In this document: piece after piece, positions 1 through 6,714 of the stretch
Numbering within the stretch: the stretch's first letter is position 1
How the letters are laid out: each line of letters begins with the position of its first letter
Source: a virus
Lineage: Duplodnaviria > Heunggongvirae > Uroviricota > Caudoviricetes
Reading direction: 5' to 3' (one strand)
DNA length: 7,757 nucleotides
IMG/VR virus record: IMGVR_UViG_2537562190_000025
The notes under the pieces: generated by a model
The model's database searches: none
What the model saw: only the letters and a program-made list of their open reading frames with translations
Told to the model about the DNA's origin: nothing
Position numbers and translations under genes: made by a program

Positions 1-888
1 ATGCCGCTGCTGGATAAGCTGCGTGAGCAGTACGGGGTCGGACCGGTATGCAGTGAACTGCATATTGCCCCGTCAACGTATTACCACTGTCAGCAACAGC
101 GACATCATCCGGATAAACGCAGTGCCCGTGCGCAGCACGATGACTGGCTGAAGAAAGAGATACAGCGCGTATACGATGAAAATCACCAGGTATACGGTGT
201 GCGTAAAGTCTGGCGTCAGTTGTTACGGGAAGGTATCAGAGTGGCCAGATGTACAGTGGCGCGCCTCATGGCAGTTATGGGACTTGCCGGTGTTCTCCGG
301 GGTAAAAAGGTCCGCACTACCGTCAGCCGGAAAGCCGTTGCCGCATGCGACCGCGTAAACCGTCAGTTCGTGGCAGAACGTCCAGACCAGTTGTGGGTGG
401 CTGATTTTACCTGGGTAAGCACATGGCAGGGCTTCGTTTATGTGGCGTTCATCATTGATGTGTTCGCCGGATACATCGTGGGATGGCAGGTCTCATCATC
501 CATGGAAACAACATTCGTGCTGGATGCACTGGAGCAGGCGTTGTGGGCCCGTCGGCCGTCCGGCACAGTCCATCACAGTGATAAAGGTTCTCAGTATGTA
601 TCACTGGCCTATACGGAGCGACTAAAAGAAGCAAAACTGCTGGCATCAACAGGGAGTACAGGTGACTCGTATGACAACGCGATGGCGGAGAGCATCAATG
701 GTCTTTACAAAGCGGAGGTAATACACCGTAAGAGCTGGAAAAACCGTGCAGAAGTGGAACTGGCCACACTCACGTGGGTGGACTGGTATAACAATCGACG
801 ATTGCTGGGAAGGCTGGGTCATATCCCTCCGGCAGAAGCAGAAAAAGCTTATTATGCTTCCATCAGAAACGATGATCTGGCAGCCTGA
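1..888 (+). CDS. IS3-family transposase OrfB (DDE/integrase-core domain), IS629/IS1203-like; 5-prime end and the upstream orfA lie outside the window
   Basis: 295-aa ORF open to position 1. Motifs typical of IS3-family OrfB catalytic core (WVADFTWV, HHSDKGSQY, DSYDNAMAESINGLYKAE). From memory the protein is near-identical to IS629 OrfB. Stop at 886-888. Confidence 0.9.
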   Translation: MPLLDKLREQYGVGPVCSELHIAPSTYYHCQQQRHHPDKRSARAQHDDWLKKEIQRVYDENHQVYGVRKVWRQLLREGIRVARCTVARLMAVMGLAGVLRGKKVRTTVSRKAVAACDRVNRQFVAERPDQLWVADFTWVSTWQGFVYVAFIIDVFAGYIVGWQVSSSMETTFVLDALEQALWARRPSGTVHHSDKGSQYVSLAYTERLKEAKLLASTGSTGDSYDNAMAESINGLYKAEVIHRKSWKNRAEVELATLTWVDWYNNRRLLGRLGHIPPAEAEKAYYASIRNDDLAA

Positions 889-1120: not shown

Positions 1121-2122
1121 TTACCCTCTATTGTCAAAAGGGTTCAATTCAACAGCAGCCTCTAAATGACCTGGAGCAAAATGCGCATAACGCATAGTCA
1201 TTTTTATATCGCTATGCCCCAGTATTTTTTGCAACACAAGAATATTTCCGCCCCGCATCATAAAATGACTGGCAAACGTGTGACGTAGCACATGAGTTAA
1301 TTGCCCATCAGGAAGCTCGATCTTCGCTCTCTTAATTGCAGCGTCAAAAGCCTCATAACATGGTGAAAATAGCGCTCCTCGTTTTTTGGGAAGCATAGCC
1401 TGCAATTGAGGTGAAATCGGTACAGTGCGGTTCTTCTTTCCTTTAGTTTTAACAAATGTGATTCGACCGGGCAGTACTTGAGATTGCTTTAATCCTTCTG
1501 CTTCACTCCACCGAGCACCAGTCGCAAGCCCAATACGGACAACAACCCCCAAATCTTTATTCCGTGACTCATCACACGCAATCAGAAGGCGTTCAATCTC
1601 ATCTACATACAGAAACGCCAGTTCCTTTTCTTCCTCACGAAACTTGCGAATACCAGTCAGGGGGTTTTCACCAGACCACTCCCCAAGGCGCTTCAGTTCG
1701 GCAAAAACAGCATGTAGATATGACTGCTCGCGATTAACGGTTGCTTCACTAAGTTTTTTCTTCCCCTTGGGATTCCATTCTCCTGATAGCCTTCTTTCCC
1801 GATAAGTGGCAAACATATTTTTGTCAAACTGAGAAGCAAATGGATCTCCCAGCCTGGAACAAATCGCCTCAAGTTTGACTTTGCGCTCTGCACCAGAGGA
1901 CAAGGTTTTACCGTACATCTCAAACCAACGAGCAATCAACTCAGAAAGACGAGGACCAGAACCATCTTGAAACTCGTCTCCAACTCTACTATTCATTAAA
2001 CGGCGCTCATAAGAGAGCGCCTCACTTTTTGTCGCAAACTGTTTACGAATGCGTTTTCCCGATGCCCCGTAGGGATAACATTCGCAAAGCCATTTACCTG
2101 ATGGAATCTTACGAACCGACAT
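1121..2122 (-). CDS. int: Tyrosine recombinase / phage integrase, P2-family
   Basis: 333-aa ORF. Conserved tyrosine-recombinase boxes: GLATGARWSEA (Arg), THVLRHTFASHF (His-x-x-Arg), GHSDIKMTMRYAHFAP (catalytic Tyr). Strong resemblance to recalled P2 Int (ITFVKTKGKKNRTVPIS, LQKILGH, YAHFAP). Lies directly next to the tRNA fragment. Confidence 0.95.
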   Translation of the reverse strand: MSVRKIPSGKWLCECYPYGASGKRIRKQFATKSEALSYERRLMNSRVGDEFQDGSGPRLSELIARWFEMYGKTLSSGAERKVKLEAICSRLGDPFASQFDKNMFATYRERRLSGEWNPKGKKKLSEATVNREQSYLHAVFAELKRLGEWSGENPLTGIRKFREEEKELAFLYVDEIERLLIACDESRNKDLGVVVRIGLATGARWSEAEGLKQSQVLPGRITFVKTKGKKNRTVPISPQLQAMLPKKRGALFSPCYEAFDAAIKRAKIELPDGQLTHVLRHTFASHFMMRGGNILVLQKILGHSDIKMTMRYAHFAPGHLEAAVELNPFDNRG

Positions 2123-2127
2123 TTTAG

Positions 2128-2475
2128 TTACTTATCACATAAATCAAATGCAGCCTTAGTGACATCCCCCAGACTCTTTTTTAACCCTGGGGCGGCATCA
2201 TTATCTAGCCAAAATGGATTATTGTTATCTAACGGTAACGCACCAAATGTTTTACCTTTTATTCGAGCCAAACCTGTAAGTGCATATAACTTATTATCGT
2301 CAAAATTCATCACATAAGGATTACCATCAAGACACTGTAATTGAACCTCATCAGAATTAAATGGCCATACCCCATTGAAACTCTCACGTTCAATAGTTTT
2401 AAAAGGCATTGCGACGGCGGAAAAAGAAAACATAGATAAAAAAGTAACTAATAGTTGAACCTTTTTTACTTTCAT
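2128..2475 (-). CDS. Small secreted (signal-peptide) protein, two Cys, possibly DUF2511/YebY-like
   Basis: 115 aa. N-terminal signal peptide MKVKKVQLLVTFLSMFSFSAVA with AxA cleavage site. Strong SD (GAGGT) 6 nt upstream of ATG. Two cysteines (QLQCLDGN and DLCDK) suggest a periplasmic disulfide. Only 5 nt upstream of int, so co-transcribed. Family assignment is from memory and weak. Confidence 0.7.
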   Translation of the reverse strand: MKVKKVQLLVTFLSMFSFSAVAMPFKTIERESFNGVWPFNSDEVQLQCLDGNPYVMNFDDNKLYALTGLARIKGKTFGALPLDNNNPFWLDNDAAPGLKKSLGDVTKAAFDLCDK

Positions 2476-2504: not shown

Positions 2505-3155
2505 TTACAAATTAAAAAACGCCCTAGAAATGACACCGCCTACCAAAACCCCTACGCAGATAAAGAATATTATTTCTTTTGGATAAAGTCGGATTAATTC
2601 TGAAGCACGAAGTCGGACTTCTGGTAAGGTCGAACTCTCTGTGTGGCTTGATGCCGATTGTTGCTCTAACCACGACAATGCAGACTGTAACTGAGAACGA
2701 GTAAGATCGTTTAAACGTCCTGTACCGAAATTGATATGGCAATACCGCAGAAGTTTTTGTCGAAGTCCACAGTCTTCACTGTTACGTAGTAATAAACTTA
2801 CAAGAGCCTTACAGGCATCATGATCTTTACATCGCTCAAGCATTGCATGCAGAAAACTCTCCGCTGTTTTATATTGATTTACTGTCATATCATCAATACC
2901 AGCTACACCAATCTCCGCATGTACTTTTTGCCAAATAATAAACGCTTCAGTATTGCTAGCTTCTGCAATAGCAGCAACCAAGCTATTTAGCTCCTTACGC
3001 TGAGCCTTAAGCAAAGGGCGATCGTCATCATCATTATTCGAAGGGATTGCGATATTGACAGTATGAGAACCATCATATCGCTCTATCTGAATATTCTTTT
3101 CGTGAAAATCACGCCCAGCAACGCGATTGTTTGAACCGTTTGAGTTGACGGCCAT
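2505..3155 (-). CDS. Hypothetical tail-anchored membrane protein (soluble ~190-aa N-terminal domain plus single C-terminal TM helix)
   Basis: 216 aa. Strong SD GGAGGTGAC before ATG. C-terminal hydrophobic stretch IIFFICVGVLVGGVISRAFF. N-terminal segment GSNNRVAGRDFHE repeats a motif found at the C-terminus of the upstream repressor. No recognisable catalytic motif. Confidence 0.75.
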   Translation of the reverse strand: MAVNSNGSNNRVAGRDFHEKNIQIERYDGSHTVNIAIPSNNDDDDRPLLKAQRKELNSLVAAIAEASNTEAFIIWQKVHAEIGVAGIDDMTVNQYKTAESFLHAMLERCKDHDACKALVSLLLRNSEDCGLRQKLLRYCHINFGTGRLNDLTRSQLQSALSWLEQQSASSHTESSTLPEVRLRASELIRLYPKEIIFFICVGVLVGGVISRAFFNL

Positions 3156-3170
3156 GTCACCTCCCTACTA

Positions 3171-3575
3171 TCACCTACCCTTAGTTTCGTTATAGTCACG
3201 ACCAGCGATACGGTTATTACCACCAGAAATATTTAACTCACGTCCTGATGGCTGAGTTTCCTTTTCACTGATCGCACCTTTTAAAGCCCCAATCACCGCG
3301 TTTTTCACATCTAACGAAGCTGCTCGAAAGCGAGTAATCAACTCCTGCTCATCATCGTTATAAGTTTCAGGTGAGTGAATTCCCAACACAACATACTGAA
3401 CATCAAGGCCAAAACGAGACAGCGCTGCCAAATACGCAGCATCAGGAAAGCTATCTCCTTTCTCATATCTAAGCTGAGTTAGCTTTTTGACTCCACCAAT
3501 GTCGCTCATGGCAACTTGACTAAGTCCCAATCTTTCCCTTTCCTCACGCAACCGCTGACCAATATCATTTTTCAT
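3171..3575 (-). CDS. XRE-family (Cro/CI-type) helix-turn-helix transcriptional regulator; probable immunity repressor
   Basis: 134 aa. N-terminal HTH (IGQRLREERERLGLSQVAMSDIGGVKKLTQLRYEKGDSFP). Placed at the head of the leftward operon, divergent from the rightward early operon, as for P2 C / 186 CI. C-terminal tail carries the GGNNRIAGRDYNE motif. Confidence 0.85.
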   Translation of the reverse strand: MKNDIGQRLREERERLGLSQVAMSDIGGVKKLTQLRYEKGDSFPDAAYLAALSRFGLDVQYVVLGIHSPETYNDDEQELITRFRAASLDVKNAVIGALKGAISEKETQPSGRELNISGGNNRIAGRDYNETKGR

Positions 3576-6392: not shown

Positions 6393-6714
6393 GAAACCAG
6401 AACATGCACACACAAAAAAACCGCTTGCCATGCCGCAATCAGTCAGGTTACATTTCCGCTGCACCTCATAAAACGGGTGCCGGGATTCTCAACCCGATAC
6501 AGAGCAAAGCGCATAACCGCGCCAGCGGTTTTTTTGTGCGTACTGTATTGCCACGTCTTTTTCGCGTCAGAATTATGGCGGGGCGTACGGGGCCGACTTC
6601 GGTCGGGCCGGATTCTTTGCTCTCCGGTGTTGAGAACCCTGTACGTCTCGCCACCCCGAGATTCTCAACTCTGGATGGTGAGCTATTTCTATCACCGAGC
6701 AAAGAGGCCACACC
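6393..6714 (+). other. Structured GC-rich non-coding island inside the rightward operon (candidate ncRNA / regulatory leader)
   Basis: No convincing coding frame. Contains the terminator-like hairpin (6515-6535), a stable UUCG-type tetraloop hairpin GGCCGAC-TTCG-GTCGGGCC (6591-6609), and three copies of GATTCTCAAC / GTTGAGAA (6485-6494 direct, 6629-6636 inverted, 6661-6670 direct). Confidence 0.35.
6515..6535 (+). terminator. Candidate intrinsic terminator (short GC stem plus T7 run)
   Basis: AACCGC-GCCA-GCGGTT followed by TTTTT (T-run 6529-6535). Stem is only ~6 bp, so weak to moderate. Confidence 0.4.

Follow-up and report, generated by a model that had tools for sequence, protein, structure and literature searches.

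The repressor gene and its membrane-protein neighbor

In a stretch of 7,757 nucleotides of viral DNA (IMG/VR record IMGVR_UViG_2537562190_000025, Caudoviricetes; hereafter the window, by which the whole stretch is meant), the gene of an XRE-family prophage repressor is followed on the same strand by that of a membrane protein of 216 amino acids (aa), and the C-terminal tail of the former and the N-terminal head of the latter carry copies of one short peptide motif, which is the subject of this work. The window segment is found, identical or near-identical, in 525 of 5,426 complete Escherichia coli genomes, where it is a prophage adjoining yecA, and it corresponds to Escherichia phage 520873 (P2-like, Peduoviridae, genus Xuanwuvirus), in which Arc-like and Cox-like genes are divergent from the repressor gene. 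Read leftward, the genes are those of the repressor, the 216-aa protein, a DUF2511 protein and the integrase (int), and a terminator search returned no terminator-like site on the – strand from the repressor gene to int (Table 1).

The repressor has weak matches, under the gathering cut-offs, to the helix-turn-helix (HTH) families HTH_31, HTH_19 and HTH_3 of Pfam, RstR/DicA-type matches in NCBIfam, and matches to phrog_8, phrog_4 and phrog_3 of PHROG, which are families of transcriptional regulators or repressors; in PADLOC-DB v2 the same protein gave nothing beyond weak HTH-level matches to RmrA. The best match of its family profile in the PDB is the N-terminal DNA-binding domain of the P22 C2 repressor (E = 8e-7). 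In the AlphaFold2 (AF2) model (ma4c8de63b35c), computed, like that of the membrane protein, from a family alignment, the fold is a five-helix HTH with a predicted local distance difference test score (pLDDT) of about 90, and in the tail (residues ~105 to 134) the score is about 50 or lower. No match to the self-cleavage domain Peptidase_S24 is found by Pfam in the 134-aa protein, and the PDB matches end at residue ~66. Homologs are annotated as repressors in the phages KS10, BcepMu, B3 and Ps59, and this annotation, together with the position of the gene, supports a role of the XRE protein as the immunity repressor of the prophage.

The downstream protein matches NCBIfam PRK10715 (Flk) over residues 37-166 (E = 8.6e-16, 58 bits; model positions 20-149 of 339) and, because 58 bits are far below the equivalog cut-off of 353, it is not Flk itself. 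The Pfam family PF27202 (Flk_N) is precomputed on its homologs, and phrog_5825 is matched with E = 4e-103. Its AF2 model (mab7e425d6070) has helices at residues 50-67, 71-82, 92-125, 129-143 and 153-172, with block-mean pLDDT of 79-92 in these Flk_N-like helices, and the head scores below 50 for residues 1-27 and stays at or under about 50 as far as residue ~40. Foldseek detected no significant similarity of the model to a PDB structure (best E = 0.67), the family profile matched no PDB sequence, and weak Pfam matches to zf-P11 and ELYS were judged to be noise. PADLOC-DB v2 contains no match for this protein or for the DUF2511 protein, and our literature search on Flk_N/PF27202 found nothing.

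The repressor open reading frame (ORF) ends in ...ELNISGGNNRIAGRDYNETKGR (also given as ...GRELNISGGNNRIAGRDYNETKGR) and is followed by TGA TAG TAG, by GGAGGTGAC and by the ATG at 3155, from which the 216-aa ORF starts in the same reading frame with MAVNSNGSNNRVAGRDFHEKNIQI. The stop codon-to-ATG distance is 15 nt, the Shine-Dalgarno sequence (SD) included; the three in-frame stops and the SD between the two copies are those that the first-pass annotation of this DNA had described. The start at 3155 is the true one: GGAGG precedes it by 7 nt, an in-frame Met does not recur before residue 90, and RefSeq gives the same 216-aa product at this locus. Furthermore, 120 of 120 listed homologs of the 216-aa protein (58-98% identical, from many enterobacterial genera) begin with the motif, in the form MxVNSxGxxNRxAGRDFxE, so that the true start is not downstream of the head, a case which the annotation had kept in mind.

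The likeness between tail and head, first noticed by eye, holds when it is scored. In the best local alignment of LNISGGNNRIAGRDYNE with VNSNGSNNRVAGRDFHE, 10 of 17 residues are identical and the BLOSUM62 score is 62. When the head was shuffled 20,000 times the score always stayed below this value (mean 20, maximum 46), as it did for the N-termini of 1,188 other ORFs taken from the fetched loci, the best of these being orthologous heads; the likeness is far beyond chance. At the DNA level the copies share 27 of 39 nt (69%) over a 13-residue core and 59% over 51 nt, close to the two thirds of the earlier estimate. There are exactly two copies of the motif, both in the window and in the entire 37.6-kb genome of phage 520873.

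Table 1. Coordinates of the repressor, its membrane partner and other features of the window
Feature	Position	Strand	Remarks
XRE-family prophage repressor gene, 134 aa	3171..3575	-	HTH residues 5-64; two helices 74-105; unstructured tail 106-134
Tail copy of the motif, repressor residues L114-E130, LNISGGNNRIAGRDYNE	3186..3236	-	followed by the final four residues TKGR
Junction	3156..3173	-	TGA 3171-3173; TAG 3168-3170; TAG 3165-3167; SD GGAGG 3160-3164; GTGAC
C-tail-anchored membrane protein gene, 216 aa, Flk_N family, phrog_5825	2505..3155	-	
Head copy of the motif, residues V3-E19 of the 216-aa protein, VNSNGSNNRVAGRDFHE	3099..3149	-	
Conserved head extension, residues 20-38 (KNIQIERYDGSHTVNIAIP)	3042..3098	-	also outside the folded domain
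Helical Flk_N-like cytoplasmic domain, residues 47-172	2640..3017	-	AF2 helices
C-terminal transmembrane anchor, residues ~187-205	2541..2597	-	Kyte-Doolittle 187-205; AF2 helix 192-215
DUF2511 protein gene, 115 aa, phrog_2950	2128-2475	-	signal-peptide-like N-terminus
Integrase gene (int)	1121-2122	-	
IS3-family transposase orfB	1-888	+	truncated by the left window end
ALIL frameshift pseudoknot	1-72		Rfam, 60 bits
isrK Hfq-binding small RNA	6461-6535	+	Rfam, 63 bits
C4 antisense RNA	6571-6658	+	Rfam, 78 bits

Conservation and co-variation of tail and head

The motif is conserved in homologs of both proteins, and is absent from neither family. In an alignment of 42 homologs of the 216-aa protein (58-85% identical) the residues S5, G7, N10, R11, D16 and E19 of the head are invariant, N4, G14 and R15 are nearly so, and in the head extension I24, D28, T32, N34 and P38 are invariant. 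On the side of the repressor, about 60 of 120 listed homologs end in (I/V)N(V/I)SGxGNR(V/I)AGRD(Y/F)xExKK, and more distant ones have different tails that are G/N/Q-rich. Nearly all the motif-bearing tails finish in a short K/R cluster (KK, KKNK, KRKE, RRRKTK, GKKK), for which contact with the membrane, with DNA or with a protease are possibilities.

The co-variation of the two copies was followed in 80 fetched genome loci of Gamma- and Betaproteobacteria containing relatives of the repressor, by comparing each tail with the N-terminus of the product of the ORF that follows. At about 39 of the 42 loci with a G/N/Q-rich repressor tail the next ORF begins with a matching head, and tail-less relatives, such as a chromosomal Pseudomonas XRE protein adjoining a response regulator, never have one. 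Over 61 non-redundant loci the summed cognate similarity is 1930 vs 1242 +/- 51 for permuted pairs (z = 13.6; 0 of 100,000 permutations), in a test that covers all 61 loci and is, therefore, free of selection by cognate score. The two copies switch variant jointly across distant lineages, as the examples of Table 2 illustrate, and the pair is also present in the transposable phages B3 (ORF18/ORF20), BcepMu (gp17/gp18) and KS10 (gp13/gp12). Pseudomonas prophages have at least three unrelated classes (NRTAGRDF in B3, QQFNAPVGSVTSGD in locus L012 and FHGPVGQAVEGG in L024), each matched by its own neighbor, and at least two classes, each matched by its own neighbor alone, occur in prophages of Enterobacterales. 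Among IMG/VR viral contigs, both copies are present, in adjacent ORFs, at 24 of 24 distinct motif loci. Since tail and head share class-specific features, they must, on this comparison, either have changed in parallel or have been copied repeatedly from gene to gene, and in either case selection has favored their matching.

Table 2. Examples of repressor tails and of the heads of their neighbors
Source	Tail	Head
Jeongeupia	TVDYGNAQIGQASAGDIVN	TVSFGGAQIDQAAAGDINN
Rhodocyclaceae metagenome-assembled genome	QQINGPISGGVAGRDFV	KQEINGDVEGGIAGRDIV
Aeromonas	LNFNGPVGTAFSGDATI	LNFHAPVEYAAGGDVKI
Brenneria	FHGDINGQFAGNKIVN	FNGTAQGQFSSRDIIN
L036	FTQHGSGMQVGHVSAPV	FEQTGSGTQFGQVSGDV
L020	KQVFKGSVSGVAGRDVV	KQTFKGPVGDVAGNDVV
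Phage B3 ORF18/ORF20	ISVTGDGNRTAGRDFHE	IEVTGSNNIVAGRDFIE

A profile of 24 positions, built for the NRxAGRD(Y/F)xE class and searched against 1.84 billion representative proteins (E <= 0.001), gave 62 matches, 60 of them true and all at protein termini. In particular, 38 of the 60 end at most 7 residues from the C-terminus of HTH repressor-like proteins, whose N-terminal domains are XRE-type or CI-type, and the other 22 begin at residues 1-5 of small membrane proteins; none is on an NLR, STAND, TPR, TIR, CHAT, Bell or HeLo protein. The two discarded matches are long proteins that score through many short stretches and in which a looser motif pattern finds no site. Almost every partner is a membrane protein, and at least five architectures are represented: Flk_N with a C-terminal tail anchor; the BcepMu gp18 type, in which an Flk_N-like domain is followed by a coiled coil, a transmembrane (TM) segment and, in the periplasm, a small domain containing Cys; a Zn-ribbon with two TM segments; a B3-ORF20-like type with two TM segments; and a ‘TGIWC’ type, also with two. 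Because it is found on unrelated DNA-binding domains and on unrelated membrane proteins, the motif is a portable tag on both sides; one class alone is shared by Flk_N tail-anchored proteins, Zn-ribbon proteins with two TM segments and B3-ORF20-like proteins with two. At loci L135 and L145 (IMG/VR), P0260, P0265, P0266, P0273, P0285 and P0289 the tail and the helix that precedes it stand on a different CI-type domain (MGNFQAALLRLKE...); as the same tail follows a different N-terminal domain, the DNA-binding domain has been swapped and the tail retained.

The aligned cores are mostly of 14-25 residues and, compared with the rest of the same proteins, they are enriched in G (x2.4), N (x3.7), Q (x1.8) and V (x1.7), not in I (x1.0), and depleted of L (x0.09), K (x0.5) and P (x0.6). 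At the N-terminus of BcepMu gp18 (locus L086, 2863-3645) and of the product of the downstream ORF of L062 the motif recurs in two or three pseudo-repeats, for example ...PVGQAIQAGEANIADRSVNIRAGSIGSVAGRDIVNVNHG....

What is conserved is the protein sequence. Over 27 loci and 447 aligned positions, tail and head agree at 54% of the residues and 60% of the nucleotides of their cores, and where the residue is identical the codon is the same in only 47% of cases, which excludes a recent duplication or gene conversion. The first-pass annotation had left the choice between a local duplication and a shared interaction or processing motif; the codons speak against a recent duplication of DNA, and the comparisons among loci strongly support a shared interaction motif. 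A function of the repeat in DNA or RNA was considered and rejected, as the direct repeats are 59-69% identical and differ largely at synonymous sites.

Several other elements surround the pair in the window (Table 1). The DUF2511 protein, encoded between the 216-aa gene and int, is likely a secreted moron of the same lysogenic operon. At the left end, the IS3-family element, with its ALIL pseudoknot, adjoins the prophage integrase gene at the position where the reference strain has yecA. The isrK small RNA lies in the early region of the P2-like prophage next to the C4 antisense RNA, and the two together are an RNA-based immunity or antirepressor control element, P1/P7-like, besides the protein repressor.

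A probable pairing motif and its alternatives

We consider it rather probable that tail and head are a matched short pairing motif by which the repressor is directly coupled to its membrane partner. The copies would be non-globular, G/N/Q/V-rich segments placed at the C-terminal extremity of the repressor and at the N-terminal extremity of the partner, on the cytoplasmic side of the membrane; in fact, as the partners either have a tail anchor or lack a signal peptide at the start, their heads are expected on the cytoplasmic face, the side of the repressor. The partner gene, next in line after that of the repressor, would be co-transcribed with it and, in most lineages, coupled to it in translation as well. 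The tail would then bind the head directly, most likely through a shared beta-sheet or beta-arch, and this pairing would give each repressor an exclusive tie to the membrane partner of its own locus. Conservation, co-variation, terminal position, the near-constant company of tail and matching head, portability and constraint at the protein level are observed; from these we infer that tail and head bind, in what structural manner and with what effect.

The consequence that we prefer is that the membrane protein controls the repressor: clustering of the partner could capture or aggregate the repressor tails, and repression would be lifted. Such membrane-to-repressor control of induction is attractive because these repressors are without a LexA-type self-cleavage domain. 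The reverse direction is almost equally possible. A membrane effector would then be kept in check by the repressor tail and be released by loss or titration of the repressor, in the manner of guards, addiction modules or abortive-infection systems; the diversity of the small membrane partners and the operon layout fit a repressor-guarded membrane effector equally well.

Some observations weigh against direct pairing. Tails without a detectable partner within 3 kb are found at L019, L031 and L033 (two of these loci are different prophages of a single Lysobacter genome), and in a few pairs, such as L003 and L014, the cognate similarity is weak. In Pseudomonas phage Ps59 (L167, 282-1297) the tail is degenerate, with NRTAGQVYHE instead of NRTAGRDFHE, and the head of gp18 is intact (NNKVAGRDFIE), a pair that may be decaying or retuned. 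Within the enterobacterial class the tail has mostly RDY vs mostly RDF in the head, so the match is one of classes and not of single residues. Finally, co-variation within the operon would also arise with a co-evolving third factor, encoded by the phage, that binds both proteins.

The alternative that survives best is a special case of pairing, namely amyloid signaling in the strict sense, with a cross-beta or beta-solenoid motif and prion-like, all-or-none templating of one partner by the other, as in the fungal HET-s/NWD2, the BASS pairs and Bab/Agp (see below), for which we would argue only tentatively. The layout, with the C-terminus of one protein repeated at the N-terminus of the adjacent gene product, is the one that revealed the bacterial amyloid signaling sequences (BASS), of which BASS1-10 were described with Bell/NLR pairs (Dyrka et al., 2020, 10.1101/2020.01.06.895854). 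The core length of about 17-25 residues points in the same direction, both segments are unstructured in the AF2 models of the monomers, and BcepMu gp18 and the L062 partner have pseudo-repeats, as do HET-s and some BASS proteins. The enrichment in G, N, Q and V and the depletion of L, K and P agree with the description of BASS, in which Q, N, G, V and I are enriched and K, P and L depleted (Dyrka et al., 2020, 10.1101/2020.01.06.895854), and a BASS pair has already been reported from an E. coli prophage hotspot (Bab/Agp, BASS11; Ibarlosa et al., 2024, 10.1101/2024.11.07.622273). However, the domain context is wholly different, the profile matches being free of NLR/STAND, TPR, Bell and HeLo domains, the enterobacterial class of the motif is rather charged (R, R, D, E), and the constitutive co-expression of both proteins in every lysogen would require a guard against spontaneous templating. 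Somewhat more doubtful is the specific form in which an amyloid-templating switch would act on the master repressor of the prophage, either because clustering of the partner nucleates the motif and irreversibly aggregates the repressor, or because the repressor tail caps a self-assembling membrane killer.

It is improbable, in our judgment, that the two copies are bound independently by a common third component, whether a host protease of which they would be the degron (ClpXP, Lon or FtsH), an adaptor, the membrane or another phage protein. The idea was raised by the first-pass annotation, and the C-terminal tails of Mu Rep and other phage repressors are reportedly determinants of protease recognition; the K/R cluster in which nearly all tails finish could be read in the same way, and a co-evolving phage-encoded partner is compatible with the co-variation. 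A host partner, however, should impose one consensus per host, whereas Pseudomonas has at least three classes and Enterobacterales at least two; with several classes per host genus, each matched by its neighbor, a common host partner or host protease site is unlikely. Moreover, there is no third copy of the motif in the 37.6-kb genome of phage 520873 or in the +/-3 kb flanks of the other loci, and no conserved third gene accompanies the pair, whose neighbors differ between P2-like and Mu-like contexts.

The junction between the genes varies among lineages. Only the E. coli lineage has the extra stops. Elsewhere there is a single TAA; the gaps go from -23 to +62 nt, an ATGA overlap being the commonest junction, and the three possible frame relations between repressor and partner are found at 14, 9 and 6 loci. 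In L152, a close relative of the window, mutation of the last sense codon to a stop has given a junction (~3063-3082) with four in-frame stops in a row, TAG TGA TAG TAG. The triple stop and the shared frame are, thus, meaningless accidents of one lineage, and the junction is simply a sign of tight co-expression of repressor and partner. It is hardly credible that the two ORFs once formed, or still form, a single protein and that the repeat, without a function of its own, is left over from an ancient local duplication, a split gene or programmed read-through: the window ORFs are in frame and only three stops and six codons apart, but this variation of frames and gaps, mostly with a single TAA or an ATGA overlap, is against it, the three or four consecutive stops rule out read-through, no fused homolog is among the listed matches of either protein search, and the motif, with its synonymous divergence, is among the best-conserved parts of both proteins.

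In temperate phages without a LexA-like repressor the exit from lysogeny is poorly understood, as is the role of the small membrane proteins encoded beside repressor genes. The matched, lineage-specific motif offers a testable hypothesis for both, namely signaling from membrane to repressor, or the reverse, through a tag of 17-25 residues. If the motif were amyloid-like, amyloid signaling would reach beyond immune NLR/effector pairs to the transcriptional control of viruses. If the prion-like switch were true, this would be the first amyloid signaling motif outside immune-sensor/effector pairs, widespread in Proteobacteria and present in B3 and BcepMu, and Mu-like and P2-like phages without a self-cleaving repressor would gain an all-or-none route to induction or abortive infection. 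Even as a simple docking tag, it would belong to a set of protein-protein tags that is compact, portable and apparently orthogonal. Tractable phages bearing the pair are E. coli phage 520873, Pseudomonas B3 and Burkholderia BcepMu and KS10.

Comparison with known systems

We found no mention of the motif strings or of the pairing in the literature; the paper on the detection of amyloid signaling motifs contains no HTH or phage context, and the present module of repressor and membrane protein is absent from the PADLOC defense-system models searched.

With regard to the DNA-binding partner, the repressors P22 C2, 434 cI and lambda cI resemble the XRE protein in the N-terminal XRE-type HTH and in the divergence of the gene from cro/ner/cox-type genes, but here the HTH is followed by two helices and the terminal motif instead of a C-terminal S24 (LexA-like) domain for self-cleavage and oligomerization. 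As for the operon, genes co-transcribed with the repressor in lysogens, such as those of lambda cI-rexA-rexB, and the operons of XRE antitoxins with their toxins are comparable in that the partner gene lies directly 3' of the repressor gene in one operon, in our loci often with a 4-nt overlap, and encodes a membrane protein, which has no sequence relation to any of them; we know of no motif common to both proteins in these operons. Co-transcription of repc-e4 in lysogens of phage Fc02 (PMC9936078) was considered as evidence and set aside, because the Fc02 repressor is compared there with lambda CI and Fc02 was absent from the phage matches to the B3 repressor.

On the side of the membrane, the closest likeness is with Flk of Salmonella and E. 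coli, a C-tail-anchored regulator of flagellar export, which has the same combination of an Flk_N helical domain and a C-terminal membrane anchor. The 216-aa protein is much shorter (the Flk model has 339 positions), is encoded by a prophage and has the N-terminal motif, which, to our knowledge, chromosomal Flk lacks.

In the pairing itself, the systems most alike are the amyloid signaling pairs HET-s/NWD2, BASS and Bab/Agp. In these, too, one protein ends in a motif of ~20 residues with which its neighbor begins; further common features are the same bias in composition, a position outside the globular domains, pseudo-repeats in some cases (those of BcepMu gp18 and of the L062 partner recall the r1/r2 repeats of HET-s), portability and one partner that targets the membrane; Bab/Agp, furthermore, shares the location in an E. 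coli prophage. The differences are in the proteins that carry the motif, here, on one side, a prophage repressor with a DNA-binding domain and, on the other, small membrane proteins that are integral or tail-anchored, with no NLR/STAND/TPR sensor and no Bell/HeLo effector, and in its polarity, because in BASS pairs the membrane-targeting effector has the C-terminal copy and here the membrane protein has the N-terminal one. The joint change of the two copies across many Mu-like and P2-like prophages points to a previously undescribed direct link between repressor and membrane protein, in which a paired terminal signaling motif would be at work in a new protein and biological context.

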